Of a stretch of DNA of 64,000 bases, positions 12,663 to 56,640 are shown piece by piece. The DNA is taken from assembly GCA_951406725.2 (NCBI GenBank), contig OX597822.1:61132001-61196000 (forward strand), in the 5' to 3' direction. The notes below the pieces were generated by a model, which had not been told where the DNA came from, searched no databases, and worked only from the letters and a program-made list of their open reading frames with translations. Source of the DNA: Octopus vulgaris (lineage: Eukaryota). The position numbers and the translations under genes are program-made. Each line of letters begins with the position of its first letter. Position 1 is the stretch's first letter.

Positions 12663-12670
12663 TATATAAA
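12663..12670 (+). promoter_or_regulatory. TATA box of gene A distal promoter
   Basis: TATATAAA about 24 nt upstream of TCAGAC and the first-exon homology block. Confidence 0.55.
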
Positions 12671-12686
12671 CCACTGACACCGATTC

Positions 12687-12863
12687 AGACATTCAAAACA
12701 AATCTTCGGCCTCATAAAGGATACATCAAGTCCGTGTGAGCGAATATTGCTGTACGACTACTGCTACTACAACTTCGGCGGTACCTACTCTAACAACAAT
12801 CACTATCTTCTCGATTTCATCTTTGTTTTTCGAATATCTTGAACGAAATCAAAAGCCACTATG
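12687..12863 (+). other. TUBA: gene A distal alternative first exon (5'UTR plus ATG only; ATG 12861-12863)
   Basis: gccactATG|gtaagatt donor; UTR alignable with 19893-20075; TATATAAA at 12663-12670; no other + strand tubulin body lies between it and 24160. Confidence 0.72.
12711..12740 (+). promoter_or_regulatory. conserved 5'UTR stem-loop, copy 1
   Basis: CTCATA-AA-GGAT-ACATCAA-GTCC-G-TGTGAG. Confidence 0.7.
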
Positions 12864-14314
12864 GTAAGATTAATTTCTTTTAACTTTCATCTGTGACGCA
12901 TTATCTAAAGAACGGAAAGTTTTCTTTCCTCTGTCAGGTGGTAAGTTCTGGCGAAAGAATTTGCGTAGTAAACGCAGTTGGTAAAAACCTTCGTCAGTTT
13001 ATTTAAGTATTATTTGAAGATGAATGTGATAGAGAGCGATATGCTGTCCTCCAGTAAATTTTATGAAATTTGTGAGAGAATGGCAAAATTTACATGGCAA
13101 AAGGGATTTAATTACTCTTAACTATGCAGCAAAAAAGAAAAAAAAAAACCCTGGGAGAACGTACTTGCTTTTGGTATGCCAAAACAATCCGTTGATGTGC
13201 GTGATCACCCTACAAGGTTCCACCACTTCAACATTTCGGGAATCCCTTTTACTTATTTTGTACTATAATTATTTATTAAGATTTTGTTGATTTCTCCTAT
13301 TTACTCGATGTAAATACTCCCTCTCTTTTCTGTTTCATTTTCTAATTCGCCTTTGTTCTGCCCTCAACATAAGTACCAGTCAAGCGCGGGGGGTCGATAT
13401 AATCGATTATCCCCCCATAAAATCTTCTAGCCTTTTGCTAAAATTTAAAACCGTTATTGTTATTTAACGAGTGTCCGCTATTTCCGTTTCGAGGTCGAAT
13501 TTATTATTCAGCTAGGTCATAAATATTATGAAAATTGTTCTTTAAAAAATTGACACCAGCTTTAGTTCTTTCTCGGCGCTTAAGTTTTATTTTATTTATT
13601 TTTTTTTTGTGATTATTGTTGTGGTTGCTGGTTCAGGACATAACCATCTCATCAATTTGTTTGTCTAGAACTCCATTATTTCAATGTGTTCTTCCTTTTA
13701 TATTTCAAGACTATCTGGTATGGTTTGGGTTTCTTTTCTTTTCTTTATTTCTAGTAGCTTAACCAAGCAAAGACTCACTCACTGGTTTATATATGTGGCA
13801 GTTTTGTGCTTCAACCACTAGCGCGTTCGAATGGACAAGGGATCTGTGAAATCTACAAATCAAAATTAAATAATTTGTAACAAAAGAAAAAACAAATAAT
13901 AGTGGTGATGAAGACAGTAGTTGTGATTTTAAGGGGTGATTATTTAACTTAGCTCTGGCAGCTCCTGTCACTGCATAGACATTCATGGACATACATTTAT
14001 CTTTGTATCGTGTCCCACCCCCGCACATTCATAATTAGTCAACATAACTTTTTATAACCCTGGGTTCCATAAAATGTGTCAGTAGCTTTTCCTCTGGTCG
14101 GCAAACTTGAATTAAAAGTATTCTTTTTTTTTTTTTTTTCTTAAACGTTTGAGGAGTGTCTTTCAAAAGATGTGCTAGTGCGTGACAGAGAGAGACATAG
14201 GTATGCCAAATATATAATTTAAAATAAGACTTGAGCGTCATTGTACGCCATTATAATTTAATACAATATACTAAACGTCTACTTTTTCACCCTCCAAATT
14301 TGAAGCCTAAAAGA

Positions 14315-15088
14315 TTGAGAACCACTGCATTGGACTGATTTGAACTTTTTTAGCTGCTATTTCGGGCTACTACGTAAAGCTCTCTCATTGGCTCTTATAG
14401 AGTCTTGATAGGTTAAATAGACAAACAAACCTGTTACTCGAACGCTTGAATGCCCACAAACCGTATAAGATTCAACAATATTCAAATAACCCAAGGCGGC
14501 GAGTTGGCGGGCGAAATGCTTAGCAGTATTTCGTTCTGAGTTCAAATTCCGCCGAGGTCGACTTTGCCTTTCATCCTTTCGGGGTCGATTAAATAAGTAC
14601 CAGTTACGCACTGGGGTCGAGCTAATCGATTTAATCCGTTTGTCTGTCCTTGTTTGTCCTCTCTGTGTTTAGCACCTTGTGTGTAGTAAAGAAATTAAGT
14701 ATTTCGTCTGTTTTTACGTTGTGAGTTCAAATTCCGCCGAGGTCGACTTTGCCTTTCATCCTTTCGGGGTCGAGAAATTAATTACCAGTTCCGTACTGGG
14801 GTCGATCTGATCGACTGTCCTCCTTCCCAAAAATTTCGAGCCTTGTGCCTAGAGTTGAAAAGAATATTTAAACAACCCCTTCTTCTGCAAAAATATGTTA
14901 AAATTTAAAATAAGGAGAGATTGCCAAATATTAAATAAAATTTATTGATAAATAAGTAAAAAACGTCTTGCATTCGTCAATTATGCCTGTTGTGATATAA
15001 AATATGTATGAACCAACTCATAACAGATAAGATGAAGAGATCCGTTGCCAGAAGTCGAATCAATTATCGATCGCTATCCTACAGAGAG
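14315..15088 (+). repeat. left arm of local inverted duplication
   Basis: reverse-complement match to 16727-17292, including non-SINE AT-rich sequence. Confidence 0.9.
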
Positions 15089-16726
15089 AGAGAGAGAGAG
15101 CACTAGTCGTTCAGTCTTCATGTTAACATGTTGTTAATACATTATTAATAATATAACGGAGTATTGAACAAAAGTTGAACAAGAAAACATTTACAGCTTT
15201 GCTGATCTGTTATTGTAGAGTTTTTATTTACTACACACACTAACTTTATTTAGCGCCACATACAGAACCGGTTTAAGACCAATTGCTAGGTCTAAGCACA
15301 ATCAAACAATAGCGTATATGTATGTCCTCTACGTCTCGACACCTCCATTGTTAACTGAAACAAAAGATCTAAGTGCTTTGGATGAAATTATAAAAAATTT
15401 ACGTTTCTGTTTGGTCGACCGTCCACCAAGCCAAACCTTACAACTGTATCAAATACAGCCAATTTCATAATTGTGTTCAACAAAGCAATTCATTTACCAA
15501 GCATTGGGTGGGATGAGGGATGCAAACTTCCAACAGTTTCATTCATTAAAACAATATTTTACCGTTCGCACCAGAATAAAATTGCAAAAGCAATTTTCGC
15601 CTCTGCTCTCGATACCCTAAGTACGTCTTTATGTTGATTATTAGTTTAACTGAGTCCGGTCACATGTTGCTATTCTGACACAGATCAGCCATGCTCTAAG
15701 AAGGCCTGTCATAACCATCTTAGCCTTCTCTTTTCAAGACAGTAGAGTGTAATTTGAGAGATTTGTGGATGTTAATTTTAGCAGATGAAGCTACAACGTA
15801 GTCATTCTCAATGACATTGATATATGTACAGGAGAAATTGGCAATATCGATCCTAGTACACAACTGGTAACTATTTTAACGGCTACCGATGTCTTTTGAA
15901 CACAAAATATAAAGAGAGGAAACTAAACTCACAGATTCTGCTACTTCACACGAAATATAAATACCAAATTTATTAAATACAAGCGTAGTACCCGTCGAAA
16001 ATGACGAGGTCTATTTCGTTGCCATTCAGTAATTCTTAATCAATTGCTTCTGTTTCTTGTACTGTGTTGTTTTGCAACACTATTTCCCTGCATGGAATAT
16101 TCAATTCCCATGATAATCTCTGTTTGCTCTGTATGGCCTGGAATAAATTTGTTTATAAGAAATACCTTGTCATCACTTATGCTTCTTCATTGTTCGTGTT
16201 CACTTACATGATTATTTCTTCTCTTCCTCTCCCTTTATATAATTTCTTCTCTTATGCTCTCTCTCAAAATCTCTCGTATACCGACGCATACACTTCAGTA
16301 TTATAAATGCATTTTATCTTTATCATTTACCCATTACAATTGTTTTATCACGTTTCACCTCCAATTTCCCTTCACTCTATTAAAACAGAGCTTTGTCTTC
16401 TTTCAGCTCGCATCTCTTTCGCAAAATTCTCTTATGTATGTATGTATGAACAATTGTCTGAATGCAAGGCAGTCAATGACATTGTTTGGACATCCGATAG
16501 AACGCATTGCAATGTATTGCGTCTCTACTTTTCAGATACTACCAATGTCGATTTAGCCTTTCGTAATTTTAGAAATATATAGTACCTAGCGAATTTTGGA
16601 GAATCTCTCACTCTCTCTTTCTCTCTCTCTTTATAATCTAAATAGGACGTTGCGACGGGTCATAGAATACAATAAAAAAGCACCCAAGTCCTTCCGTAAT
16701 AACTAAGCAAAATTAGAAATTTCCAA

Positions 16727-17292
16727 CTCTCTGTAGGATAGCGATCGATAACTGATTCGACTTCTGGCAACGGATCTCTTCATCTTTTATCTGTTAAAAG
16801 TTGGTTCATATATATTTTATATCACAACAAGGATAATTGACGAATGCAAGACGTTTTTTTTACTTATTTATCAATAAATTTTATTTAATATTTGGCAATC
16901 TTTCCTTATTTTAAATTTTAACATATTTTTGCAGAAGGGGTTGTTTGAATATTCTTTTCTACTCTGGATATAAGGCTCGAAATTTTTGGGGAGGGTGCCA
17001 GTCGATCAGATCAACCCCAGTACGCAACTGGTACTTAATTTCTCAACCCCGAAAGAATGAAAGGCAAAGTCGACTTCGGCGGAAATTGAACTCACAACGT
17101 AAAGACAGACGAAATACTGCTAAGCATTTCGCCCGCCAACTCGCCGCCTTGGGTTGTTTAAATATTGTTGAATCCGATACGGTTGGTGGGCATTCAAGCC
17201 TTCGAGGTTTGGTTGTAAGAGCCAATGAGAGCTTTACGTGGTAGCTCGAAATAGCTAAAAAGTTCAAATCACTCCAACGCAGTGGTTCTCAA
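16727..17292 (-). repeat. right arm of local inverted duplication
   Basis: reverse-complement match to 14315-15088; lacks one ~180-bp SINE unit present in the left arm. Confidence 0.9.
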
Positions 17293-19892
17293 TTTCAGAG
17301 AGAGAGAGAGAGAGAGATCTCATCTACCACTGAAGCTGCAAGATTACACTATCCCACCACAGGCGCCCTCCATAATCTGCTAACAGATGTTACAAAGAGG
17401 CAGATATAGATATCGCATCTGTCTGTGTGTTCTGTTTAGAGATGTATTTGCCAATTCATCCTGTCCTAATTTAAGATGGCAGGGTGCGATTTGAAGAAAA
17501 GTTTGCTATGCTCTACAAGTCGCGTTCACGCAGTGGCTCGAAGTAAACACCGGTGCTGTTGTGTAGCCCCCAACAAACCACCTGTAAAAATAAAATTATG
17601 ATGAAAGGCACTCCAGTCGTGACAATTCCGTGGTTTGTATATTGGGAACTATATTGTTCAATGCAGTCTGGGTGTGATTTGTATAGTTTTGAGAGGCGCT
17701 GTTTTCTGCATATTAAGCGACAACTGCATTATGTGTTGGGTGCTCCAGCATGGACACAGCCTTTGCGCTGAAACATAAAAGAAAACCCTGACATTTCTTA
17801 CGCTGAAAGTGTTAGCCATAACTGCAATACGTCGTGCGGTTTATGTACGTATATAGATTATCGATTTCAGAGTAAAAGAAAGTTGGGTGAGGAACGAAAT
17901 TGTATTAGAAAAGTCAGTAAAAATCTTTTCCCGTTCCATGACAGTAGACCTCATCTGAGATATCACATACTGTGACACCATCTCCATCGACAATTTAGTG
18001 TTAATCACCAGGTTCCGCTGCTTGTCGGGCTGAGAGAAAAAAAACTGTCAAGATATCGGTTGCTTTCCAACAAGTTTATGGTAAGCCTGTGGCAGTTGAG
18101 ACTTGCGGTGTTCTTGGCTCCGGACCATATCCCAACTCATCGGTATCGGGGCAGAGATTACTGTCTGCAAGTGCGAGCCCCATGAATCAGAATGGCAATC
18201 TCCTGGGCGACGCCTTTTCCATTTTGTCTCTTGGTGCCATAAATGTTTATACTTTCTGAGAGACACTTTTATTTTTATTGGAATTAGTTTTTCCTTTATT
18301 TGTATTTAATGCATTTAGTTAGGTATACCTCAGCAAGATATTCGCTTTTTCATGGCATTTTAACAAATTATGAGACCATTTTGCAGAGTTAAATTATCTC
18401 CGTTTAGGAGCATGTTAGACAAGGTCTAAAGGTCTTTGGTTAAATCTCTGGTTTCTGCAAAGTAATGAAGTTTTTTGCTTTGGGATTTACTGATCGAAAT
18501 CTCACTAGTTTCACTTTAGGGAGGATAGACAAGGAAGTTCTTGCGATCACACTGCGCGCACACACATGCATACATGTGATCGTTGTGTGTGCGTGCGCTC
18601 TTTACTCCTGTTCCAGTTATTGGACTGCGGCTATGCTGGAGCCTTATAGATTGAATCTATCCTAGTACTTATTTTACGTTTAGTATTTATTCGATCGGTC
18701 TCTTTTTGCTGGACCTCTAAGTTACGGAACGTAAGGAACTTAATACCAGTTGACAAGTGGTGGAGCAGACCCACACATTCATATGAGCGCGCGCGACGGG
18801 CTTTAAGTAGTTTCCATCAACCAAATACACTGCGTCAGTTAATATATGCATGTGTTCGTGTATATAATAATCTTTAAAGATACTTCTAGTGTTTATCGTT
18901 GTCTGCGTGTTTACGTTCGAATGACAGTATATGTGTGTCTGTTATGGTAAATTACTTATCTAGATTGTGTATTTGTGAATGTACATGCCTTTCATATTTT
19001 ACTCCTCTTTAGTGTTTGTGCAAATGTTTCTTGTTTAATCCTAGGTCAGACCTGATTGAGCAAAGATATTACAGCAATCACTGTCTCATAGTCATACTAC
19101 ATGTAGGCATACCTCAACATAGATCGATAATTGCTTCCAAGAAACAACTTAACACGAAAAGACATTTTCCAAAAAAGTTATGTTTTAATAAATGGTTTCT
19201 ACGTATTTTAACGTGTATTATTTGATATTCCTCCTCGGTAAAGGTATTTAAGTGGGGTTTTTTATTTTCATAATTTTAAATGTTTGGGATCGACGTAGTC
19301 GGATAAAAATCTAATGGAGTCGAGGTTTATTTTTTCCATTGATTTCTTTTCAAAAAGACGTAACTCGAAACTGCGTATGTTATATAGTATGTATAAGACT
19401 ATATTATCAAATGTGGCCTTCTCTAAAACGTAGATACACTGCTATTTCTAGCTAGTAGGACAACCACATAGATGTTCTTATTGACTATATTACATAATTT
19501 TTAGTGTCTACATGTGTGTGTGTGTGTGTGTATATATACACAAATACATGTATGATTGTTTCAATGTCTCCTGTCGTTTGTATGTTTGTGTATGAATATG
19601 ACTATTTCGGATCTGTGTTTGTGAAAAGACGCATTCGTAAACAAAATGAAAGATAGATGTCGCAGAAAAAAAAAAGCGGGTTGTTGTAGTGGTGATGGTG
19701 GTTGTAAGATCCAGCACTGAGTTTCCGAAATGGTGGAAAAGAGGAAGTGGAAAACGACACTTCGTTTTGGATCTAGTAAATAATGATATAATAAATAAAT
19801 ATAATCGATAAATATTGTGTAGGATAGTAGTTATAGGAGGCGCGCTCACACACGCATGCACACATATACACTCAAAATCATGGTACCATCTC

Positions 19893-20075
19893 AGACGTTC
19901 ATAACCAATATTTGGCCTCATTAAGGATACATCGAATCCATGAGCGAACATTGTAGTACTGCTACAACAACCATACCTTCCAGCGACTGCTACAACTGCA
20001 GCATCTACAACAACTAATACCACTACAATCTCATCTTCGTCTTTCAAATTATCTTAAGATCCAAAATCCATTATG
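19893..20075 (+). other. TUBA: gene A proximal first exon (5'UTR plus ATG only; ATG 20073-20075)
   Basis: atccattATG|gtaagatt donor; splicing to 24160 gives MREC; homologous to three other ATG|gtaag exons; start inferred from TCAGAC initiator-like motif. Confidence 0.82.
19917..19944 (+). promoter_or_regulatory. conserved 5'UTR stem-loop, copy 2
   Basis: CTCAT-TAA-GGAT-ACATCGA-ATCC-ATGAG. Confidence 0.7.
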
Positions 20076-21783
20076 GTAAGATTAATTTTAATTATCATCA
20101 GTGATATCATCATTATTATTATAGTGAGTGACCGCTATTTTACGTTTTGAGGTTGAATTTATTATTCAATTAGAAGTAGAATGCTAAAGAAATGTCGGGA
20201 TGGTGAACCGACTTATTTCTTTTTACATTTATAAATTTTGAATTCTTGGTTCTTTTGTGATTATTCTTTTCTTAATTAGCCCTAGGCTAGCCCTGATAGA
20301 TGAGCTCTGTTGATCAGAGGCTTTTAAATCGTGATCATCTCTCTTCTTGCATATCTAGTACTCCACTGTTAAATGTTATATAATTTAGAAGGAAAAATTC
20401 AGTAGGGTGTGATTTAAGTGAAATTTGGCTGTTATTTCTTACAATTCGATCAATCACTTAGGAGCTCTCTCATTTTCTCATTTTTAAATATTTTCAACTG
20501 TTATAAATTCATTTTCATATAAGCAAACAAATGAACAAGAAATCTGTCAATAAAATTATTTATGGCAGTTTGATATAATTATGCTAGTGATTGGTGGTGT
20601 GATTTGATGGCTGTTTTTTTTTTAATGTATTCTGACCATCGTTGTTAACCACTGATGCAGGTCTATCTATACTGTAACCATGACCATCCTGCTTGTATAT
20701 ATACGATTACATTGTCTAATATGTCATCCCCTTTCTTAAGACAAGTAGAGTATGTTTTAAGGGAGATTTGACTGCTATTTCTAGTAGGACAAACTGTTAG
20801 AGAGAGAGAGAGAGCGAGTGACAGAAAATTGTTAATGAAACATAAAGAAACATTGCATAGAACATACAGGTAAATTTACTGTCAATACAAACCTCATTTT
20901 AACATTCATTTTTCTATGCCTGCATGGGTTGGACAAGATTTGTTGAAGCAGATTTTCTACAGCCAGATGCTCTTTCTTCATCTCTTTCCCAATGGCCAGA
21001 CATTTTTCACAGAAGATGGGGAATGATTGATGCTCATTTACAATCATCATGTGAAATCAAACTAAGAGTACACAAACGCATACACACTGCAGGCTTCTTT
21101 CAGTTTCCATCTCCCAAATTCACTCACAAGACTTTGATTGGCCCAAGACTGTACTAGAAGACAATTGCTCCTATACCTGCATCATACTACTAAACATTTC
21201 CAATAAAACAATGCTTCTCAAAATGGGCAGTACTGCCCCATGGGGTAGGAAGTGGGGATAGATGCATATATAGTTTTCTTAGTTTGACCCCCCTATTTAA
21301 ATATTGACTTGAGAAATATTTAAATATATATATATATGCAGACATGGCTGTGTGATAAGAAGCTTATTTCTCAACTACATGGCTCTGGGTTCAGTCCCAC
21401 TGCATGGTACCTTGGACAAGTGCCTTCCACTATAGCCTCAGGCTGATCAAAGCCTTGTGAGTGGATTTGATAGATGGAAACTGAAAGAAGCCCATCGTGT
21501 GTTTGTGTTTGTTGCCCCAACACCACTTGACAACCAGTATTGGTGTGTTTACATCCCCCGTAACTTAGCAGTTTGGCAAGTGACCAATAGAATAAGTACC
21601 AGGCTTTTTTAAAAAAATAAGTACTGGGGTTGATTCATTTGGCTAAAAAATTCTTCAGAGCAGCCCCAGCATGGCCAGTCTAGTGACTGAAACAAATAAA
21701 AGATAGTATTGATAAACATTTGTTAGCCATAAAACATCAACAATAGTAATAGATTTTGAAATGTGAATAAACAAAACAATGTA

Positions 21784-22646
21784 TGAGAGGGTGTCAAAAA
21801 GTTCCCAGACTAGTTTTGTAGTGTACCAATAGATGGCAGCACATGGTTGTGTGCACCGTGAGAGCTAGCAGTGACCTTCATGAAACAGTGTGCTAAGTAA
21901 CATTGCTGGGTTTACTTTGCAAGTTGTGAAATTTGTGTTTTTGTGATCATGTGTATGCTGTAGTCTGCGATTTTGTCATAGATGGGAACAAAGAGAGCCA
22001 ACATGAAATTTTGCTTTAAACTTGATAAGTTTGCTATTGAGACACTAAGCGTGTTTCAGCAAGCTTATGGTGATGAGGCAATGAGTCGTGTGCAATGGTT
22101 CAAGTGGTATGGGTGCTTCAAAAGCAGGAGAACATCCTTGAAAGACAATCTGGGAGATCTGCCATAAGCATCACTCCCAGAAATGTGGTAGTGTGCATCA
22201 AGAATTCATCCCCCAGGGTCAGATCATCAATCGAGAGTTTTGAAGCATTTGAGGGAAGACTTTCGGCAAAAGTGACTGGATCTGTGGAGTGTGAAGAATT
22301 GGCTTCCTCACTGAGCTCTCCTACCTCTTGAGTTTCTCATCAAAAACATATTGCTTCCGTACCTGCTCTATTCACCAGATTTAGCACCTTTGATCTCTTC
22401 CCCAAGATGAAAATGCAACTCAAAAGTTACTGTTTTAATACCATTGTCAAGGTCCAGAGCAAATTGCAGAAGGCTTTCGACTCGCTTATGGAAAACGACT
22501 TCCAGGCCAGATTCCAAAAGTAACAGGAACACTTGGACTGGTGTATTGTGGTGCAAGGTGACCATTTCAAAGGAGTTGATGCTAAAATTTAGATGTTATT
22601 TTTTATTAAACATAACTAGTCCTGGAACATTTTGATGCCACCTATG
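21784..22646 (+). mobile_element. internally deleted mariner (Tc1/mariner) transposon
   Basis: imperfect TIRs with TA flanks; RANMKFCFKL...QQAYGDEAMSR.Q.FKW HTH-like N-terminus and YSPDLAP motif. Confidence 0.85.
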
Positions 22647-24093
22647 TATATAAATTATTAACAAAAGTATAATTTAAAAGACAGGGATACCTGGCTGGCT
22701 GACTGGTCACATACTTCTGTCATTTAGGCACCTCTGATCCAGTCATTTCTCCACTTCTTGTCTTAGTACATCCAACTCTCCCTTTCTTCAGTCATGTTTT
22801 CCTTGCAGGTGTTGACTTACAACATTTGAAACAGAACATTAACAACATCAATATCACCACTCTCAGAAGGCCTGCATTTATTGCTTGCTACTTTTTACCA
22901 TCACTCATTTATTACTACCCTTCACTCTCTTCCATTAATTCTTCCATACCACACTTACACTCTTCTAACTCTTGTTTTCCTCCTCAACCTGTTATACTTT
23001 TTCTGTTCTCTTTTGTTTATTTCCTTGCTCACATTTGCCCTGAACAAATAGGAACAACAAAGAGATCTCTTTTTGCAGCCTTGTATAGGACACGTCAACT
23101 TCTTTAGTGTTGGTGCCATGATAAAATGAACCCAGTATGTTGTTAAGTGGTTGGTGAATGAAATTAAAGAGATTTTTAATCTTGTTGAGGATGTTGCAAA
23201 TTTTATAATACTTGTACGATGTTAAAATCATCTACACTTTGTATAGTTGTAAATATTTGCAAGGACACTTAGCCATAGGAAGCATGGAATAATGAACTAA
23301 ATGCAAGTTTTAGTCTTCTAGCATGTCTAGGAAGGCACTAACTCCAAATATGGATTAACTCAGAATGTGATAACCTGTCCAACTTGTGCCAATATGGCAA
23401 GCAGGTCTAAATTGAGGATTAATGGATATCTATCTTGCTAGTTTAGTGGCTTACCAGCCATTATGATAACAGAATCCATAAAGAAAAGGAACATGTCTAA
23501 TGGTTACAAGAGTTACATGACTTAAGTAATTTGCTTTGTAATCATGTGGTGCAAGGTTCAGTCCCATTTACCTGGTATCTTGGACAAGTTCTTTGACTTT
23601 CAGGTCAACCCAAGATTTGTGAGTAAAGTTGGGTAAGTAGAAACTGTAGAAGCCTATTGGATTGTACATTGTGATACAAAATAAACCAGCTTTATCACCC
23701 TGTGTCAAGCTAGATCTGATTGACAGTTATGTTCAGAGAGCATGTATTTATGGAATACTTGATCACTTACACAGTAATTCTATAAGTAGGTAGTTCAATG
23801 ATTAAAGAATGCATTGATGGAATCAACTAAATTCCATTGATGTTTTTATATCAACTTAATGATTCATTCATCTCTAGGGTCCAATAAAGTTAAGCCTAAT
23901 AAAAACTGTCTCCAGGGTTATCTCTCATACTTGCCATTGATTATTGAAATTACGTTATTGATCAGAAGTCTTTTCCTAACTACAGAATTATTTCAGATGA
24001 CATTTTTAATGTTCATTATATATATATATATATATAAATGTGAATTTACTACATACATATACTCGTGTAGAGATGATGTTTATGTATGCTTAG

Positions 24094-25612
<1,519 letters not shown>

Positions 25613-25645
25613 ATCACTCAGTGATATTGTGACCACTCTCCAACA

Positions 25646-25651
25646 AATAAA
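25646..25651 (+). terminator. polyadenylation signal of gene A
   Basis: AATAAA about 34 nt after the stop, followed by a U-rich tract. Confidence 0.7.
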
Positions 25652-28600
25652 GAACTAAATACTTCACCTTGGTTTTTTTTTATTCTTTCTTTCTTATTTG
25701 TCAGAGTGGCAAAAAAACAATAGGGCACAGATTAATGTTCAGGGAAATATAGTCATCATTCTAAATCCTGAATTAAAATCTTAAGAATTGACTTTTATTT
25801 CGTATATTTCTTTTAATCAACAAAATATCAGTTATCCACTGAGATTATCCAATTCCTTATACTCATCTCTTTGCTGCCTCCTGGCAAAAAAAAAAAAGAA
25901 AATAAAAAGCATTTGTAATTCTATTCAAATTTGTGAACTCTTATTTGGTAGGCATTCAAAAACTGTATTTTTGATAAAACTATTCACATTGTTTATTATT
26001 GGGAGAATAACAGCATGGTTCTTGTTAAAACTGTAGATGACCAAGTTAACATTCCAAGCATTTAATACACTCAAGTTCCAACTGATTTAGTCTGTAGAGC
26101 TGAAAATAAGTACCATAAACAAAGTACATGTAATTAATTGTAAGCTGAGGAAGCTACGTATATTTCATTAGCATGTTGCATATGATTCAGCTCATCTTGT
26201 GAGTATGACTTGGAGAGATGTCAGTTCTGTGATGTCTTCTTACCCCAAATGCACAACATTTAAGATAGTTCTTACATAATGATGTTACTACTTTTCAGGA
26301 CAGTCATAAGATTTCAATACCAGGTTATTCCGACCAAATTTGACAGCTAATCATTGGAATACAAGGTGGTTAATAATGGTAGGCTACAACTTGCTGAGGA
26401 GATAGTCTAATCTTCTGTTATGATTGCATTTACACTAGGAAGATTTATTGGAATATCAAATTGGTCCCAGTACTTGACAAGTGTTTTATTTTATTAACCC
26501 CCAGGAAGATGAGAAACTATGTAGGCTTTGATGGAATTGAACTTGGAATGCAAAGGGACTTAGCTAAACACAGTAGGTATTTTTGTCCAATGTTTTAATG
26601 CTACTCCACATCCACTGCCTATAATCAATTTTTATTGATCTCAGTACTTGCACGGATTTTATTAAAGGAAGTTGTGACTCCAGATGGATTTTTAACTCCA
26701 AACTTTTGAAAAACAATAAGTGATGAGCATTTCTCCATCACTCACCAATTCTTTTGTGATCGTTTAACCCAGTTGGAAATAATAGTTAAATCTTCAAATA
26801 AAGCCTTACAACCCCAGTCTAAAAAAATTTTGCATGATATAATCATTGATGAATGATGTTTGAGAGGATTGGATAGTCATGACTTGAATGCTTTTATTCA
26901 ATGTCTGTAGTTCCTTACTGCCTAATTGATTGACAGCTAAACACCAAAGATACACTGGGCAACATAACAACACAGTTTCTGATAATACATAAAGAGCGAA
27001 ATGTTCATTGCTGAAATACCTCTGATCAGGGTTGGCCTGGTGCCAATCTGAAAGCAGATAATTAATAATTATGTCATTCCAGTAAAATAAATAAAGCTTG
27101 TTTATGTATTTAGTGCACATATAAAAGTGAGATTGAAGCAGGATGACATAGGACCTTTTGGACCAGAGTGCTCCGAGAACTTATGGTGGCCACACATTAG
27201 CACTGCAGTGCTCATGAGCGATTATGTGAGTTTGCTGACTGTAGACAACGCATCCTATACAAAACAAACTAATAACGTTGACTGTGGTATGGTTGCAAAT
27301 ACAATTGAGGGTATGAAGGGCCATCTGCTCAAAATAATTGGCATATTAGTCAATCTATCAATGACTGCTTTAGTAGTGTCACAGGCAACTGGTAAAAGAG
27401 ATGCACTAGAGAGGTAACTAAGGAAAAATGAAATTGTTAGATTTAGTTATGAAAGTTACGGAAAGGGTAATTAAAAGGACTTGCTCTAGACGTGGTTCAG
27501 ATTTGTTCCACGAAGTACTACTGATACCATCTTCCTAGCAACATAACTGCCAAGAAAATAGATGTCTAGGAAATTACTGCTGTGTCTATAATTCATCTAT
27601 CTGGTGATGGTCCTTTGACAGAATTTTGTGCAGTGAAATCTAGTGGTTGCTAAGGTGACTAGGCATAGAGAAATCACTCGTGAGAGCCGTACAAGCCATG
27701 TGAGGATGTGCAGTGAGTAATGAATTGTGTGAGGAATTTAGTGTGCAGTGAAGGATCCATTAGAGCTCAGTTCGCAACTTCTGTTTATTACAGTATTGGC
27801 TACACAGGAGTTTTAAACCCATCTCTGGGAAGTCCTATATATATCGACGACCTAGTTGTTATAGCTGAATTTATAGACTTAGAGCAGAAATTCCAAATAC
27901 AGAAGCAAAAACTTGCAATAGAGAACTAAAGTGTTAAATATTGATCTTAGGAAGTTGAACTTCACGAAGGAAATGGCAAAAACCATCGGGACTGGCAACA
28001 AAATCCAAGCGAAGACTCATCTACTGATACAAACGCAACAAAACAGTCGTTAAAATGGTGGTGGAAGCTGAGATGTATAAGTTAACTAACTGGGATCTTT
28101 TGTATTCGCTCATTATATTCCTTTTAAATTGCTATCTACTGCCCTTTTCGTTAGTCTCTTTCCTACTCTCACCCTCTCGGTCCAGTTTACCTCGAAACAA
28201 CGGAAGCAAAAAGAGAAAATTCTTTTGCCCTGCTGGGGACAAAGCAATCCCTTTCTCTCCCCCACTCCTCTCTCTTTCTATCTAGTGATGATGCCAAAAT
28301 AAAATGCACACGGTACACTGTGAAGTGGTTGGTTTAGGCAAGAGATCCAATCTACGGAACCAAGACAAAAACGAAGCGTACAAACGAAACGTTGTCCATC
28401 GTTCCACTAGGTGGGCAGTCATTCCGAATAAAAAATTACGTTGACCTTATTGACCTGTACAAGCTGTTAAAGATCTTTTATGATCTTTAGATCTAGACAA
28501 TGGATAGGTGCTATTGAAAAAAATTATGATTTAGGTAATTTGTAATGTCATAGTTTACTGCTCAACTAGTATCTTGGATAATGTGTTTCTTACAAACCCT

Positions 28601-32960: not shown

Positions 32961-35069
32961 TTAAATGTGAGGTGAGAATAAAATTTATATTGCAAACAAT
33001 TTGCAGAAGTGTAAAGATTTGACGTGTTCGTTTTTGAAATTTATAAATCCTAAATAATTTAAGTGACTTTTTTCTCTTATGGAGATTTTAAGTATGTTTT
33101 ACAAGACTTCACATTCCTTCGTGCCGTTTTCATCAAATCTGCACTTCACCACTAGACCTCGTAGAATGCACAATATTCTATGGTATCAAGGATTAATGAG
33201 ATGTCAGCACAATGTTTTGATCGTCTATTAATCGTATAACGTAAGAGATCGGGGCATCTTGTTATAACTGCATAATGTGTGAAAGAGGTTGCGTCGTGCT
33301 TATCAGGTTAAGTAGTTTTATTTAAACCACGTGGTTCCAACTTGACAAGTTTCTTCTGATATAGCATCAGACTGACTTCAACGAAGGTTCATCGATTTAT
33401 ATATCTTTTCGTTACTATAGTGTATTATAGAATTTATTTTGTGTTGCAACGGTTTTAGATAATACGTCTAATCAATCGTCTGCGGACAGAAAAAGAAAAG
33501 CTGTACACGTGTTTCGATTCTTGTTGCATTTAGGACCAGTAACTGTACTTTCCTCACCTATCCACGAACACACTGCCTATAAAACCACTAATATTAGGGT
33601 TAAAGTAAACTCGATAAACCAATTTGCATATTTTAACAATTTTGTAAGCAGCGGGATCATTAAATTACAGATATGTTAATGGGGTTTTGTCACATTGCTA
33701 TAAGGTACCATAGAATATACCTATAAGTATTAGCCAGCATTACGATTGTAAAACAATTCAACTCTTGGACAGAAAACATGCTGGCTAAAAGAATCTCCAT
33801 AGATATGTGCTAAAGAACATTAAAGCAATGAAACGAAACTATTAATATACTAGTAATTCAATCGTTTTTGCCTATTTTTCCATGCTTCAATAAGAGACAG
33901 ATCTTCCCCGGAACATTATCTCACCATTTGAGAAAACTATTGTCAAATTCAGCCTCCGGAGATCATCGTGTCCTTAATCTTCGTTTTCCATTTAGATTGT
34001 CTAACGCTTCATCCAAGTGTCATTTTCGACATCTGCTGCAGCTCAGTCTTGTCTTTTGCAAACATCTTATTCGTCTTATACCCATTTTACTCTGTTCATG
34101 TGTGTCTATAAATCATGTCCACTAACATTACATATCCAGTGGAGCATGCCGACCTCGTACCACTTTTACAGGTGGCAGTTGAGTCCCGTCTTTTTTCTCT
34201 GCTAAGACTTGTCTTTACAATGTCCAAGTGAAGATTCCTTGATTCTAGTTTTGCTCTCATATTTGGAATTTCTTTCTTTCAGCAGAATTAGTTTTGAGAA
34301 CTAGTTCGTTACTATGGACGGCTAACCAAACTCTTCTGTTATGAGGTGGCTGAGAATCAAATCTTGACAGACTCCTACCTATACACAAAATTCTTCAGTG
34401 AATTTGTTGCTAGCTCACTTTGATAACAGCATCTCTGTAAATGGGTTTGCATTGCTCTCACAAGCAACTCGTCTATATCTAGTTTTCTTAGTGTCCAGAC
34501 TATAGTGTAGTGTTCTCTGTGTCAACAAATGCTAAGTCCAGTACATTGTTCTCAATGATATGCCAATCTGCATCTCCACTAAGCTAATTTTCGTCCTAAT
34601 TAGTTGTGTTAATTTCTGCTTTCACAATTTAGTACATTAGTTTATTACACCTTATTAGAACATTGATGAGTCAATGACAAGCATGTCAATAGTGTCATGT
34701 GATGAACTTAAGGGGGAAAATGCCTCTTTGCAATATCATGTTAGAAAGCCTTAACGTTCAGCATTGAGCTAAATTCAATTCAGTAGTAGGTATTCCTTTT
34801 GGGGGTACTTGGGGATATATATCAATAAATATCCTTAAAAAAAAAAAACTTTGTACGTTGACCGCTGAAAATGCTTAATAAACTTGATAATATTTCCAGT
34901 TTTTCAATGTCATTTAAATTAATTTCACTATTCCGCAGATAGCTGTGCACTTATTTTCTGAAAACGGAATGTGTGTGTGTGTGTTGTTGTTGTTGGGGGG
35001 GGGCAGTTAGTGGCGTATTGGCTCCTATTTCTAGCAACCCACGAACTGTCTATTTCACAGTAATGTCTA

Positions 35070-36333
35070 TATCCTTATAAAAAGCAAAGTTCGTTTGTAC
35101 ATTAACCGATGAAAACACTAAATATAAAAAGCAAAGTTTGTTTCTATGTTGACTGTTGAAAACACTAAATAAAATTGATATTTCAGGATCTTCGTGTCAT
35201 TTAAATTAATTCGACCATTCCACACATAGCTGTGTACTTATTTTCCGAAAACGTATTTTGGTGGTGTATTAGTTCCTATTTCTAGCAAACCAGCTATTAT
35301 CTATTTCGTCATAATGCTTTTTATAAAGTGAAAAATCCTCCACCTATCACTTAATCCACCACCAACTTTCTCTAACTTTAGTCATATTTATTCTTTTGAA
35401 ATCGCCGCTGGCCCTATGCTTTTTCTGTCTATTGTCCCGCTTTATGCCTATCTCTCTCACTACCTCTACTTCTTTTTCTCTCGAGAAAACACATGCGAGG
35501 AGAAAGGAAGTTACAGACAAAAAACAAGTGCGGCGCTGGACCTCTGCTTTCTCAGTCTATATGCCCTTCTCTATATCTCTATCACTATCTCTGACTGGTT
35601 GTATGTGTCTTTCTCACTACCCCTACCACTATCTCTTTAGAGAAAAAATACACAAGACAGAAAGGAGGTTAGGGAGAAAAAAAGAAACTAGTGAAACAGA
35701 GTGGGGATGAAGGTAACCACATCTATAAATCTATCGACGCGGACAATGCTGTTCATTATCCTGTTGAATTCCTGAAGTCTGGAAGCGTCCAGAATGCGGC
35801 CACATAGCTTTGAAGTGAAGGGCGCAATCATCATGCTTCTCAGAAACCTGGATCAGCCAAGATTGTACAATGGTACAGATATGCTTGTGACTGAACTATA
35901 GCTTCACATTATTGAAGCAAAAATCCTCATTGGATGCAGAAAGAGAGACATCATATTTATACCGAGAATACAGTTAATACAACACATGTCTCCTTTCGTT
36001 TAAAACGATTGCAATTTCCAGTGAGAGTCAGTTACTCAATGACCATTAACAAGTGTCGGTCTCCATCTAGAAGAAGGCTGTTTCTCACATGGTCAAGTGC
36101 ATGTAGGTTGCTCCAGAGTAGCAAGCCCACAGAAACTCTTCATATATGTTCTGAAGGAAAAAGTTTAAAACAGTGTATATACTGAAGTTCTGTAAATGTT
36201 TTATAATTTTTGTACAATACATTTCTCTGTTATTATCTATATTACTTTCTGTATTTAGATATTCTAAACAACTTTTATTGTAAGGAAAATGGGCATTATA
36301 ATAGATGCCTACAGACTGGGAGGCATCCTTTAG
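35070..36333 (+). mobile_element. Helitron remnant with PIF1-like helicase fragment
   Basis: 35820-36125 encodes IIMLLRNLDQPRLYNGT...IIEAKILIG...IFIPRI...RLQFPVRVSYSMTINK...FSHGQ..VGCSRV with frameshifts; 3' hairpin GATGCCT..AGGCATC at 36304-36327; 5' boundary uncertain. Confidence 0.75.
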
Positions 36334-36455
36334 CACGGTTAAAGACCAAATATTAAACAAGTAAAAAGTTGAATAGAATTGCTAATTTAATTAATGGTGC
36401 ATTGTGTTAATTAAAACAAGAACAAACAAAATTTCATTTGAACCTGAAAGGTGAC

Positions 36456-36461
36456 TTTATT
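36456..36461 (-). terminator. polyadenylation signal of gene B
   Basis: minus strand AATAAA about 37 nt after the stop, followed by GU/U-rich ttttgtttgttcttg. Confidence 0.7.
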
Positions 36462-36497
36462 TTCAAGCAATCGTTCTTGCAAATGTCTTTAAATCAT

Positions 36498-37624
36498 TTA
36501 ATATTCATCGACGTCTTCATCTTCAGCATCAAATGTGTCAACTCCAACCTCTTCATAGTCTTTCTCCAGAGCTGCCAAATCCTCACGAGCTTCAGAGAAC
36601 TCACCTTCTTCCATACCTTCTCCTACATACCAGTGAACGAAAGCACGCTTGGCATACATCAGGTCAAACTTGTGGTCCAGGCGAGCCCAGGCCTCAGCAA
36701 TGGCTGTGGTGTTGCTCAGCATGCACACAGCACGTTGAACCTTAGCAAGATCACCTCCTGGAACAACAGTTGGTGGTTGGTAATTGATACCAACCTTGAA
36801 GCCAGTTGGACACCAGTCAACAAACTGGATTGACCTCTTTGTCTTGATAATTGCAATGGCAGCATTGACATCTTTGGGAACCACGTCACCACGGTACAAC
36901 AGGCAGCAAGCCATGTATTTACCATGGCGAGGGTCACATTTCACCATCTGGTTTGCTGGTTCAAAGCATGCGTTTGTAATCTCAGCTACATTCAACTGCT
37001 CATGATAGGCTTTCTCAGCAGAAATGATTGGTGCATAAGTAGCCAATGGGAAATGGATCCTAGGATAAGGTACCAAGTTGGTCTGGAACTCAGTCAGATC
37101 AACATTAAGAGCACCATCAAATCTCAAAGAGGCAGTGATTGAACTGACAACCTGAGCAATCAAACGATTCAGGTTAGTATAGCTGGGTCTTTCAATATCA
37201 AGATTTCTTCGGCAGATATCATAGATGGCCTCATTATCCACCATGAAAGCACAGTCAGAGTGCTCCAGGGTGGTGTGGGTGGTCAGGATAGAATTGTATG
37301 GTTCTACAACAGCAGTTGCTATTTGAGGAGCAGGATAGATGGAGAATTCTAGTTTAGACTTCTTTCCATAGTCAACACTGAGACGTTCCATAAGAAGAGA
37401 TGTGAATCCAGAACCAGTACCACCACCGAAACTATGGAAGATCAAGAAACCTTGAAGGCCAGTACATTGGTCAGACAATTTACGAATTCTGTCAAGAACC
37501 AAATCAATTTGTTCTTTTCCAACAGTATAATGACCTCTGGCGTAGTTATTGGCTGCATCTTCCTTTCCTGTGATGAGTTGTTCAGGATGGAAAAGTTGTC
37601 TGTACTGACCGGTACGAATCTCAT
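36498..37624 (-). CDS. TUBA: alpha-tubulin gene B, terminal coding exon 3
   Basis: ctttcag acceptor; same length as gene A exon 3 (1127 nt); ends ...[18 protein letters not shown]. Confidence 0.98.
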
Positions 37625-37741
37625 CTGAAAGTAAAAAAAAAAAAAAAAACCTCATTTGAATCATTTGTTCAAAAAGTTGAATGAAATTAAAATTTCCAAA
37701 ATTTAACAATAAGATACAGAAATACATATGAAAATACTCAC

Positions 37742-37964
37742 CAACAACAGTGGGTTCCAAGTCTACAAAAACAGCCCTGGGAACATGTTTTCCAGACCCT
37801 GTTTCACTGAAGAAAGTGTTGAAAGAGTCATCTCCACCGCCAACTGTTTTGTCAGATGGCATCTGACCACTTGGCTGGATTCCATGTTCCAGACAATAAA
37901 GTTCCCAGCAGGCATTACCAATCTGGACTCCAGCCTGTCCAACGTGGATACTGATACATTCCCT
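37742..37964 (-). CDS. TUBA: alpha-tubulin gene B, coding exon 2
   Basis: minus strand ttttcag|AGG GAA TGT ATC = [12 protein letters not shown]...; 223 nt; ends G|gtgagt; K40 motif present. Confidence 0.97.
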
Positions 37965-39046
37965 CTGAAAAAGAGAAAAAAAATGAATTCAATTAATTTA
38001 AAAGAAATTAATTAATTTTTTTTAAAGGGGCCTCATTAGATAAGACTACAGAAACAAATTGAATCCTTTCAACGACACTGTGTGGGTGCAGTGTTGATTG
38101 AACTACAATTTCATTAATTCTCAGCTACTTGATGGATTAGGTCAGAGGTCGCCAACCACTAGATTGCAAACAAAGCAGTGGATCATTTGGTACCAAGCTG
38201 CAGAGAACAGATAAACTTTTTTTTACATCTTACTGTTTTTTTACTGGCTACCACAGCTGGATGTTTTTGTACTATATGTGTAATATGATCTGATAATCAT
38301 ATTACATATGCCTATTGAGGTTTATTATCCGCGGCACAAAAAAAAAAAAAAAAAAAAAAGAAAATGATTGAGTTTCACTGGTACATTAGCTGTATTGTTA
38401 CTTGGCCTAGATCAGCCTTAATGGAGCAGTCAGGACCATCTTGTCATTTTAAGAGTATCTAGGAATATATTAAGCATATATCCCACGCTTCTTTATGACA
38501 GCAGGGTGTGACTTAAGGGAGATTTGGCTGATATTTCTAGCAGAACAATCGACCAAATAGAGGCCTCCATTCGATGGCTTGTAAATGTACTGTCAGGAGA
38601 GATAAAATTGATGTGTACAGACAAGATACTATTGTCTAGTATCTGTCGGAGTTTATCACATGCAAGCGAGATATCTAGAGAGAATAATGAATATTGCTCA
38701 TATGAGATGCAAAAATATCAAATCAGAAATAAAAAAAATTCTTAACGAGACGAATAAAAGTTTCATTGATGAAATTAGTCACACAACCAAACTACTAGAT
38801 TTGTGTAGAAGTTATCTCCCTTACCATCCTACGTATCATTCACTACATCTAACATGACCAAAACTCATAACGCTACTTTTGAAAGAACAGAGTGGTCGAA
38901 CGAGCGACAGAGAGAGAAAGAGAGAGAGGTCACTGAAGTTTGGAAGCATCAGTTTCAATGTTAGGTTTAAAGAGTGTTGGAATGCTATACAGCATTTTAT
39001 TACCATACACAGATCAAGTATTGCATGCTTGAAAAGTTCGAGAAAA

Positions 39047-47002: not shown

Positions 47003-47150
47003 CATAATGGATCTGATGTGTTTTCAGTTGAACAAAAAGTAAAAGAAATTTGAAGAGATTTTTTTCTTTTTTTGTGTGGGAAAATAGCACGGCAGGCGGC
47101 GCTCACACAGATATGAGGTATCTTTCGTGAGGGCGAAGCTGCTTGTAACT
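47003..47150 (-). other. TUBA: gene B proximal first exon (5'UTR plus ATG only; ATG 47005-47003)
   Basis: minus strand gatccattATG|gtaagtt; TATAAAA 28 nt upstream of a CAGTT initiator-like motif; carries the shared UTR hairpin. Confidence 0.85.
47102..47131 (-). promoter_or_regulatory. conserved 5'UTR stem-loop, copy 3
   Basis: minus strand CTCACG-AA-AGATA-CCTCA-TATCT-G-TGTGAG. Confidence 0.7.
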
Positions 47151-47171: not shown

Positions 47172-47178
47172 TTTTATA
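47172..47178 (-). promoter_or_regulatory. TATA box of gene B proximal promoter
   Basis: minus strand cTATAAAA, 28 nt upstream of the A of GCAGTT. Confidence 0.7.
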
Positions 47179-52400: not shown

Positions 52401-52829
52401 ATTTCCTTCTTTGCAGGCTTTTATATCCTTGGGATACACGTTAGATATATAATTTAACGATGCGGTGGTTAAATCAATGTGTTCGTATGACGTACTTCGC
52501 ATGACTACCAAAACACTCAATTTCTTTTATTGGCCACACAGGGCCCAACACAGGAGAGACGTCACAAGGACAGACAAGCGAACACACACACACTGTGATT
52601 ATAATGAAATGACAAATGTAATGAAATGAAGGAAAATTTTTGAATTCTTACAGAAAGCGAGATAATAATTAAAAATTCCATATTTTATACATTTTTTACA
52701 TCACCGGGTTAATTCACCCACCGCTATTATCCGACGTATCCCCCTTGGATGGCTGCAATTAGTCATTTCCATTCATTCGCAACTTTCTTACTACGTTCGT
52801 TCATCTACCAATCGTACTACGCGACAGAA

Positions 52830-54190
52830 ATTTTACCCACCCGCTCTAAGGTGTAGCACATGAGGTGGAGATTGTCGTATATCGCCCTGCCAGGGATGGC
52901 CCATGTTAGCGCTTCCCCAACAAGACTGCCTACGACCCGCGCTTGCCTCTTTGCCAGCACATTGGCCAAAATCTTTACCTATGTGTTTAACAGTTATGGG
53001 CCTAAAGTTACTAATAATGTCCCTCTTGCTTGGATTCTTTCTGATCAGCGTCACCCCCACCCCCCATTCCGGCTCGCAGCCTTTGGAATTCTCCCATTCT
53101 GCTGCCAGTTGGTATAGACGCTGGCCAGTAGGTGCCCGAACAAATCTGGCATACTTTTGAAAAACTCTTAGGGTAGACCATCAAGTCCCGGCGACAGTCC
53201 CTCTATGACCTTAGCCGTGATCGATCCTTCACAGCACTCAACCTCTCGTACCGAGAGACGCGGGCCACCAGCCAGGAAGTCCCGAAGGGGCTCACCATGG
53301 TCCAGCGCCTCACTCCTCCCTTACTCGGCAAAGTGCTTGTAAAGGATCTTACACATCTCATCTTGTCCTTCGATCAAACGCTCCTGTCCATCGACCAAAG
53401 ACCCAAGTGTGGCATCATTGCAACAGTAATTTCCTCGCAGCCCAATGTACGCACTTTAGTCCGAACTCTACATCCCTCGTGTTTGGCTTTGAGGTGTCGG
53501 TCCAAGGCCGATCTTGCTGTCAAAACTTGGGATGCAGAGCCCATCCTTAATGCCTCTTCTAAATCCTTGACTAGATTCCCTTCTATTCTAGCCTTATCTA
53601 AACTTAGCTACTGGCTAAATCTAATCGACTCAAGTCGAATGGCTCGTTTGAGGGTAAACCACCACCTGTTATTTAACACGTTGCCGGTTAATGCTCTCAT
53701 GACTAACTCCTTAATCTGACTACGGTATGCCTCACAAGACAAAATAGTCATGTTTAGCTTCTAGTAGCCAGATCCCTGTCTATGTACTCTATCTATGTTC
53801 ATCCTACACGTCACTGGCCTGTGATCCGTGTAGGAGACCAGAACAAGCTGTGGACAACTAAAACTAGACTTATCTCGAGTACGAATTATTATTCTATCTA
53901 TATAAGACCTGAACGACTTGTCGCCATTACTCCAGAACGACCAGCCCATCTTCTGGGTCTACAAAGATTGTACTTGCCTGCAGAGCCAAGCTTTTACGGA
54001 GCAAAACTACTACCCTCCTCGACCTCCGGTCTAGTTAGGAGACATGATTTTCTCATAGCCATTCAGGAGAGCCGAGAAGGTTTGTAGTCTGTCCAGCTTG
54101 ATCTCTGTAGCAACAATCACATCTATGCTATGAGACCTGAGGTCGTCGCAAAAACAAGCTTGCTTCTACTTCAGGAACTCAGGTACAGTC
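52830..54190 (-). mobile_element. L1/Tx1-like LINE ORF2 fragment (APE endonuclease and start of RT), degenerate
   Basis: minus strand YIDRII, YTDHRPV, GSGY*KLN, SPGLDGLP, TLIRK...NFRPIT remnants with stops and frameshifts. Confidence 0.8.
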
Positions 54191-56498
54191 ATTTATACAC
54201 GAAACGGGGATCAGGTACTTACCTGTTTTTAACAAGCGAAGGAGGGATTGTTCTTAATGTTATAGAACTACTCTCCTCCTTGTTTTTCTCCCTTTCCTCG
54301 TCGGTTTCCGGCGGTGGGTCTATCAGTTTGAGCATCTCACTTATTTTGTGGATGCCCTCCGGTCTCCTGTCTGGAATCTTACTTCGAGGACAACATGCCG
54401 TAAAAAGTTTGATACCATGAACGAGTTATTTCGAAGTTTTCCTTGTGTATGCTGGTTGCCGCAGTAAAATTTTTAACACCGTGATTAGTTTGGTCACTGA
54501 ATTGGTTTCTTTTAGAGCCATTCGCTCTTTTAGTATTTCCACATATAGAAGAGACATTATTTTTCCAGAGAAAAACACAGATATATATTTTTGAAAAAAT
54601 TCTCACAAAGGGAACTAATTCTTTTAATAAATTCTCACGAAAGTGAATTCAAAAAGTTCATTTTCCTCCCCCGTAGGGTAAAGGACACAGTTCACAAAAA
54701 AGATTTTGAACAAGTTGCAACAGCAGAAAGCTATGTTCAAGTCTTTCCCCCGTAGGGGAAAGCACGAAATTTCAACAACGGCCTGCCAAGCAAGTAACAG
54801 TTTTCAACAGACAATAAACTACAATAATTTCAACGCCAGGGGTGTCAATGACTCGCGTCACAACACAGGCCTAACCGAATCCTAAAAAAAAAATGACGTG
54901 GCTGCGTGGTAAGAAGCTTGCTTCCCAACCACTTGCTTCTGGGTTCAGTTTCACTGTGTGGCATCTGGGCAAGTGTCTACTACCATAGCCTCGGGCTGAC
55001 CAAAGCCTGGTGAGTGGATTTGGTTGACGGAAACTGAAAGAATCTCGTCATAGATGTGTGTGTGTGCGTGTGTATTTGTGTCTGTGCTTGTCCCCCCACC
55101 ATCGCTTGACAGCCGATGCTGGTATGTTTACTTCCTCGTAACTTAGCGGTTCGGCAAAAGAGAACCATATAATTAGTCCTAGGCTAACAACGAATAAGTC
55201 CTGGGGTCAATTTGTTCGACTAAGACCCCCTTAAGGTAGTACTCCAGCATGGCCACAGTCATTTAAATGACTGAAAGAAGTAAAAGAATAAGAGAATAAA
55301 AAATAATGGTCATGGTGGATTAATTAATTATGTAACAGTTTGAAGATTTGTTTCCAGGCCAAGCATCGCGACCAATTCTCTGTTGTCTCTAATAAGTCAT
55401 TCAAAAACAACCAAAATCGACTTAATTCTCCGAGATAGATAACACAAATACACGTCATGCGCTGGGATCAGTTGGACACTATGTCGACAATTCCTCTTTA
55501 GGTGGCTGGTTGTAATATGAAGAAGATTTGGCTACTATTTCGTTGAAGAAACATTTTCCAATCAATCCATGCTGACACACTTCACTTATTAAAAAGAAAA
55601 ATCTTCCTAACTATCGGCTGTTAGCAGTATATTAGCAAATCTTGATTTTCGTATCTCGTAAGCGACACATTTTCATATCGACATTTTCTTTTTGCAGCAG
55701 CGGTAGACAAAGCAGAATATAAATTAAATTGTTTGGTTCTAAATATTCAACATTGATCGAAAAATATGTTCCAGCTGTGACCATAATGTTTGTTTATTTG
55801 AGTTAAATAAGTGTAGTTAGAGCTAAATTAACCATTGTGTTTGTTCATTTTCATGAAAAACATTTGGGTGCGATTTGATAATTATTTGTAGCAGGTTAAA
55901 CGACCGCGAAAACAAAAAGTACAACCGGTGAGATAATACTAATATACACAAAAACACCTCAAAAGTAAATAGACAACATTTTTGAAAGATTTATTTATTT
56001 CTGGAAACAACAAGTTTTAAATACTAGAATATAGTAAACACGAATTGGATTGGATTGCCTATTTTCAGTCCACTGCAGGACGAAGGACTCAGCATGTTCC
56101 CTCCACCAACCACGGTTCGATGTAAAAGCCGTGAATTTGAGCTTGAGATTATACTTGTTTGATGAACCTACTTTGCTACACTGGCTCAACATGGCTTGGC
56201 AGAAGGATTACATCGAGCCCAATGTTCAACTGGTACTTATTTTATCGAGTTTGGTAGGATGAAAGCAAAGTCGGCCTCGGCGAAATTTGAAGTGAGAACG
56301 TGGGGACGAAATAAATAACGGCTTAAGCACTTCGCCCGTGCTAACGATTCTGCCAGCTCACCGCCTTAGTAGACGTATCTTGTGCAAAATGCAGTAACAA
56401 GGTGGTAGGACCACTTAGTGTCCGCGCAGATAAACCAGTATAATGAGAGGTGTGTGTTTATTTTTGATATGTCTGTGTATAATAAATATCGAACTTAC

Positions 56499-56634
56499 CA
56501 TGTTGATATACTTTGTTTAGACAGTCGAATGAAGTAACAGCGGTCAGTGCTTAAACAGAGGTATTTACAGTTCAGTGGGTGCTCACACGGATTTGATGAA
56601 TCCTACGTGAGGGCAGAGATTGATTTGAAACACT
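56499..56634 (-). other. TUBA: gene B distal alternative first exon (5'UTR plus ATG only; ATG 56501-56499)
   Basis: minus strand tcaacATG|gtaagtt; TCAGTG initiator-like motif; carries the shared UTR hairpin at 56611-56582. Confidence 0.72.
56582..56611 (-). promoter_or_regulatory. conserved 5'UTR stem-loop, copy 4
   Basis: minus strand CTCACG-TA-GGATT-CATCA-AATCC-G-TGTGAG. Confidence 0.7.
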
Positions 56635-56640
56635 GAAATG

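Follow-up and report, generated by a model that had tools for sequence, protein, structure and literature searches.

Homologous first exons ending in ATG upstream of two alpha-tubulin genes of Octopus vulgaris

Several genes are already known to carry duplicated alternative first exons. The Drosophila gene hydra has nine of them, four or more of these are used as transcription starts, and copies lacking a TATA box are still used; hydra is a young testis gene whose nine-codon first exons lie beside DINE-1 elements (PMC1904467). At the UGT1, GCNT2 and protocadherin clusters, tandem related first exons are spliced to constant exons and undergo birth-and-death evolution (PMC1885805). Here we describe an arrangement of this type in a 64,000-nucleotide stretch of the 2.8-Gb genome of Octopus vulgaris (contig OX597822.1, called C9 below; C9:61132001-61196000, hereafter the window), in which four homologous first exons, each ending in ATG directly followed by a GTAAG donor, lie upstream of two alpha-tubulin gene bodies on opposite strands. 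The architecture is a variant of known systems and not a new kind of system.

The locus resembles hydra in that duplication has placed homologous first exons in front of a single body; it differs in that an ancient, conserved tubulin is involved, Met is all that the exon encodes, and one extra exon resembles exon 1 of another paralogue. With the UGT1, GCNT2 and protocadherin clusters it shares tandem related first exons, and it would share their birth-and-death evolution; splicing to common downstream exons is observed here for the distal + exon. The variable exons of those clusters encode much of the protein and diversify it, whereas at this locus the protein stays the same and each body has only two such exons. 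Dobner et al. (1987, NAR 15:199) reportedly, to go by the title, described alternative 5' exons of mammalian alpha-tubulin, one of which denies the initiator Met; we take these to concern the testis form of TUBA4A. If the title is a fair guide, the likeness is that different 5' exons serve one alpha-tubulin coding region, which an intron after the ATG makes possible, and the difference is that both exons here supply Met and are homologous duplicates. Among the listings of openly available papers that we searched, none dealt with paired first exons, or with the hairpin described below, in cephalopod tubulins; subscription papers, supplements and public annotations may already model the isoforms. 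An octopus retina study covers 3' untranslated regions (UTRs) only (PMC2493028).

Our preferred reading, which we hold to be probable, is that each of the two genes has two homologous ATG-ending first exons, that splicing joins the distal + exon to the + body, and that all four are likely alternative promoter/5' UTR cassettes for two unchanged proteins. They are likely real alternative first exons on the + gene, and on the - gene too.

First exons and gene bodies

We refer to the + strand body as A (24160-25612) and to the - strand body as B (37964-36498), and to the first exons as D+ (ATG 12861), P+ (ATG 20073), P- (ATG 47005) and D- (ATG 56501). The features are as follows.

12663..12670, + strand: TATA-like box of D+, from sequence
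12685..12863, + strand: D+ first exon; initiator-like TCAGAC, hairpin 12711-12740, ATG 12861-12863, donor GTAAGA; predicted 5' end; contigs of runs X2 and X6 show it joined to 24160
13456..13510, + strand: intron-1 element, first copy, 84% identical to 20112-20168
19891..20075, + strand: P+ first exon; TCAGAC, hairpin 19917-19944 with a 2-nt deletion, ATG 20073-20075, donor GTAAGA; predicted 5' end, which may lie further up
19940..20017, + strand: predicted upstream open reading frame (ORF) of P+, 25 codons, out of frame, with its ATG at the hairpin deletion
20112..20168, + strand: intron-1 element, second copy, from sequence comparison
24160..24382, + strand: body A exon 2, from sequence, translation and a contig joint
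24486..25612, + strand: body A exon 3 to the stop codon, with AATAAA at 25646-25651
36498..37624, - strand: body B exon 3 to the stop codon, from sequence and Pfam
37742..37964, - strand: body B exon 2, from sequence and translation
47003..47150, - strand: P- first exon; TATAAAA 47178-47172 upstream, hairpin 47131-47102, ATG 47005-47003, donor GTAAGT; predicted 5' end and splicing
56499..56636, - strand: D- first exon; TCAGTG, hairpin 56611-56582, ATG 56501-56499, donor GTAAGT; predicted splicing
56641..56716, strand not applicable: 4-nt microsatellite at the position expected for a D- TATA box

The original prediction, made from the sequence alone, had placed four ATG/GTAAG exons so as to face one + and one - body, and all six of its coordinates are correct: the exon positions 12861 and 20073 on the + strand, 47005 and 56501 on the - strand, and the acceptor AGs ending at 24159 (+, body A) and 37965 (-, body B). 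Two or more sequence-related first exons thus lie upstream of each body. With ATG prefixed, A and B each translate to an intact 450-residue alpha-tubulin; the two proteins differ at 16 residues and their acidic tails end in DEEY and VDEY, with an aromatic last residue. Tubulin GTPase and Tubulin_C domains are matched by Pfam for A exon 3 and for B, and among the 60 Protein Data Bank matches listed for A exon 3 the entries that name a tubulin type are all alpha-tubulin (best E 3e-247). Intron 2 of B (37741-37625, - strand) is 117 nt long and stop-free in frame, so that exons 2 and 3 can be read through as a 496-residue frame; this is probably chance, since the matching intron of a neighbouring body (T1, below) is 118 nt.

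An intron directly after the ATG is a common trait of animal-type alpha-tubulin genes. The junction is observed here for A, and all 17 alpha-tubulin bodies with printed context start at codon 2 after an AG. Because every first exon encodes Met only, the choice of exon leaves the protein unchanged, as had been predicted, and there is no variable protein segment of the strict UGT1/protocadherin type. The exon 1 donor and every body acceptor here are phase 0, so a co-oriented exon 1 copy upstream of any body could splice in frame, as D+ does to A and as the other three are expected to do. Each exon would have its own promoter, and exon choice would alter the 5' UTR and expression while the protein stays the same. 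A pyrimidine-rich tract with an AG lies 10 nt before the P- donor (47015-47003, - strand) and another 17 nt before the P+ donor (20058-20075, + strand); if used as acceptors for distal-exon transcripts, these AGs would shift the frame.

All four exons were said to share an initiator-like motif, a hairpin and a donor. The hairpin and donor are indeed present in each, the hairpin of P+ with its 2-nt deletion; the initiator-like TCAG is clear in three of the four, while the version at 47150, GCAGTT, is weaker. D+ has a TATA box at 12663 and P- has one at 47178; P+ and D- have none. The sequence ATGGTAAG occurs six times in the window (2.6 +/- 1.8 in simulations) and alone proves little as a marker of first exons; we did not accept it as a first exon at 18078 (+), at 38827 (-) or at window-relative 121423 (-), the shared motif being absent.

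The statement that no other tubulin coding sequence lies between the exons and bodies also stands: tblastn, blastn and a coding-sequence profile detected no tubulin remnants in the six intervals tested, which lie between the exons and around them; the other matches there consisted largely of repeat-like pieces and of overlap with flanks belonging to the query itself. Pfam recognised no family in 11 non-tubulin open frames (of 30 listed). Between D- and B there is neither a body remnant nor a Pfam-recognised gene for D- to serve instead.

Splicing evidence from assembled contigs

Read evidence came from assembled contigs of four runs from four studies, compared with the + gene. The RNA status of the runs is guessed (none of 20 runs is recorded as RNA, 14 were guessed to be RNA, and four of these 14 were compared with the locus), and such contigs give no start sites, strand or levels. 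The joint from D+ to A (12862>24159, or 12863>24160 with GT..AG borders once shifted rightward by one base) is present in two of the four runs, X2 and X6, from studies P1 and P2, so the predicted junction is found; the splice skips 11,296 bases and P+. The X6 contig runs on through exon 2 (24159-24381) with no mismatches, and since A and B differ at eight sites there, it belongs to A; at one exon-2 site, 24169, A has a G where B has an adenine. A exon 3 has only one 100% match in the assembly, which makes a processed DNA copy an unlikely source of the joint. D+ is a working first exon and not an orphan, and the suggestion that the distal exons are left over from deleted tubulin copies is refuted for D+. 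Unspliced contigs across the D+ donor are also present.

For P+, the corresponding junction (20075>24160) was reached from one side. A 371-letter contig of run X14 (study P5) covers 19744-20074 with no mismatches and leaves the genome at the P+ donor with 40 letters left over; a contig continuing into exon 2 as far as the first 31-mer that body B has in common with it would leave about 41. Bin depths in X2, X13, X14 and X6 are 316, 18, 0 and 96 for D+ and 4, 26, 73 and 0.2 for P+; we set these aside as a sign of tissue-specific exon use, because exons cannot be ranked by contig depth or by gaps in cover.

P+ has changed more than D+: it has no TATA box, a 2-nt hairpin deletion, an upstream ORF and a CpG-depleted intron (CpG observed/expected 0.21, compared with 0.94 between D+ and P+ and 0.82-1.06 in three other first introns). 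Gene-body methylation in octopus marks genes that are highly expressed across tissues (PMC9476566). The missing TATA box, the CpG-depleted intron and this methylation pattern together suggest that P+ is likely an old broad promoter, and gene A may combine a long-standing, broad, TATA-less promoter at P+ with a regulated, TATA-containing one at D+. CpG depletion spans both bodies (20001-28000 and 34001-38000) and at A reaches up to P+; similar dips at window-relative 78-82 kb and 120-124 kb contain no tubulin body.

The shared hairpin and the wider tubulin cluster

The motif common to the four exons is 28-30 nt long, lies 110-156 nt upstream of the ATG and can form a hairpin. A pattern allowing one mismatch, built from these and related exons, gives seven matches in 2.8 Gb, all of them upstream of alpha-tubulin bodies, and none when reversed as a control; it misses P+ with its 2-nt deletion. 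The sharing of the motif is not due to chance. The hairpin is present in 11 first exons at three loci, and D- folds into the same hairpin as the other copies. Rfam gives no match in the window at gathering score, and folding z-scores of six hairpin copies range from -1.1 to -3.8. In a first alignment, with P+ left out, 94.5% of cells pair and 111 of 500 shuffles reach the covariation score; in a second, of 11 rows and with P+ misaligned at its deletion, 90.7% of cells pair (10 are unpaired) and 200 of 500 shuffles reach it; in neither does covariation exceed that of the shuffles. All 11 one-sided changes in the 11-row alignment are pair-keeping, which they are by definition, and 10 of them are to G-U. 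The loop is conserved too, and the hairpin may therefore act as a sequence motif read by a protein. In the flanking stretches examined, 12 more divergent alpha-tubulin bodies, on C1, C2, C4 and C11, showed no such hairpin nearby. Eight divergent copies on C11 (23.26-23.32, 24.20-24.24 and 26.65-26.72 Mb) are about 83% identical to A in exon 3; two of the eight align in split pieces, perhaps reflecting frameshifts, and no hairpin exon was found near them.

A and B belong to a cluster of five bodies, the others being T1 (-, C9:61.094 Mb), T4 (+, 61.225 Mb) and T5 (-, 61.242 Mb). T1 and T4 have one motif exon each, 4.5 and 6.7 kb upstream (at C9:61.099 and C9:61.219 Mb respectively), and a contig of run X13 joins T1 exon 1 to a tubulin exon 2. 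The cluster thus has seven first exons for five bodies, counting one degenerate candidate at T5. The other motif loci have three for three (C9:42 Mb) and two for two (C6:70 Mb), or five for five together, and by this comparison two exons are surplus, one at A and one at B. One first exon at C9:42 Mb (C9:42227201; L029 7201-7255) has a second, partial motif 3' half about 40 nt past the hairpin.

Another reading is that the assembly lacks or has misplaced a body in this cluster of near-identical genes, so that D- belongs to another gene such as T5. In its favour, identity between the bodies is 90-94% across more than 1.1 kb, and T5 is intact but has no full motif or hairpin exon within 184 kb upstream. 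Against it, a candidate for T5's own exon 1 does exist, 34 kb upstream (C9:61275909), where a half-motif lies 48 nt before ATG/GTAAGT. This is the top score in the 184 kb, and a score that high occurs at 10 sites in 1.73 million positions, of which the other nine are tubulin first exons; the candidate has lost the 5' arm of the hairpin. There are also no Ns in 264 kb, and D+ splices to A exactly as assembled. We consider a misassembly very unlikely. The T5 body (C9:61241855; L015 5855-5633, - strand) has an N-terminal loop, MPVDTFIPGG, that differs from that of A and does not contain Lys40, presumably the acetylation site.

Origin of the exon pairs

The layout had been described as a mirror image, and its symmetry together with the homology of the four exons would be expected if an ancestral two-promoter gene had been duplicated in an inversion and the architecture inherited by both copies. 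Such a duplication would pair D+ with D- and P+ with P-, a pairing that the exons do not show. D+ instead pairs with P+ (69% over 224 nt, alignment score 211, tree support 85), and the cross-mirror scores are 119 for D+/D- and 72 for P+/P-. The D+ and P+ introns have in common a 57-nt element with two matches in the genome, the query and the other copy. P- is closest to T1 exon 1 (hairpin 97%, 74% over 139 nt, score 186), and body B is nearer to T1 (94.5% over 1521 bp) than to A (91.4%). We saw no low-copy homology between the two first introns beyond short repeat-like pieces. Going by this pairing of the exons, inheritance of a mirror architecture appears largely refuted, and we give it only a very slight probability.

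By the identity of hairpin and donor, D- pairs with T4 exon 1, with which it lies back to back, 30 kb apart. Hairpin identity is 93% (z 13.4) and a 15-nt donor region is 100% identical (z 10.4), but the flanks, upstream and in the intron, match no better than shuffled sequence (z 1.2, 1.0 and 0.2); D- has no upstream ATG. Since hairpin and donor were kept while the flanks diverged to background, the pattern, judged by sequence, is one of selection and not of decay.

The same exon is the crux of another account, in which only gene A has two working first exons and D- is an orphan, silent or almost so, left by a tubulin copy that was deleted recently. In its favour, the read evidence covers the + gene and not D-; a microsatellite replaces the TATA box of D-; and the cluster shows repeated duplication, with patchy identity between bodies. 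Against it, the hairpin, initiator-like motif and perfect CATG/GTAAGT of D- are intact beside flanks that cannot be aligned to its closest relative, and the 9.3 kb separating D- from P- hold no remnant of a body, of intron 2 or of a 3' UTR; moreover, the equivalent distal + exon is used. We regard this account as improbable, though less so than a misassembly.

A number of points weigh against the reading of all four exons as working alternatives. D- has no TATA box, with a microsatellite in its place, and its conservation could date from a recently lost body. A maximum-likelihood tree of 11 exons puts D- beside a C6 exon on a long branch (support 84) instead of T4 exon 1, leaving the D-/T4 kinship to rest on pairwise hairpin and donor identity, and the D-/T4 local-alignment score is possibly inflated by microsatellites. 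The P+ to A joint is not among the 15 of 139 joints listed, and the leftover length is 40 letters against 41 expected. The runs that yielded the contigs are only guessed to be RNA, and the contigs, besides giving no starts, strand or levels, cover the + gene, so that splicing of P- and D- is proposed from sequence. Five of the eight supported nodes of the exon-1 tree are at 36 or less, and we rejected this tree as a guide to the order of events; body trees were rejected as a guide to history, being confounded by patchy identity.

The history of the four exons is most simply explained by a single tandem duplication at A together with a separate gain at B; the symmetry would then be incidental, the two events being independent. 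The + pair would have arisen by tandem duplication of exon 1 plus the start of intron 1, and D-, related to T4 exon 1, would have come to face B either as an inverted, exon-only copy or as what was left when a gene copy was lost. Differences between A and T4 are patchy, with none in one 150-nt block and 19 in another, which suggests gene conversion among the bodies. A broader proposal, which we put forward tentatively and think somewhat more likely to fail than to hold, is that the Met-only exon is a portable cassette that has been duplicated and captured between paralogues (a D- of T4 lineage driving B) while gene conversion homogenised the bodies, so that expression would be reshuffled independently of protein, and that the hairpin controls translation or localisation of tubulin mRNA.

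Copying or inheriting a first exon that holds only the start codon may be a route to new expression domains for a near-invariant protein. With seven first exons for five bodies, a count of tubulin genes by their bodies falls short of the number of promoters here, and the first-exon isoforms look alike to coding-region probes. The hairpin, in 11 first exons, is a concrete target for testing tubulin mRNA control. Between D+ and P+ there is also an inverted repeat pair (14314-15088 and 16727-17293; 92% over 395 bp and 78% over 328 bp), which its very high contig depth marks as repeat-derived.

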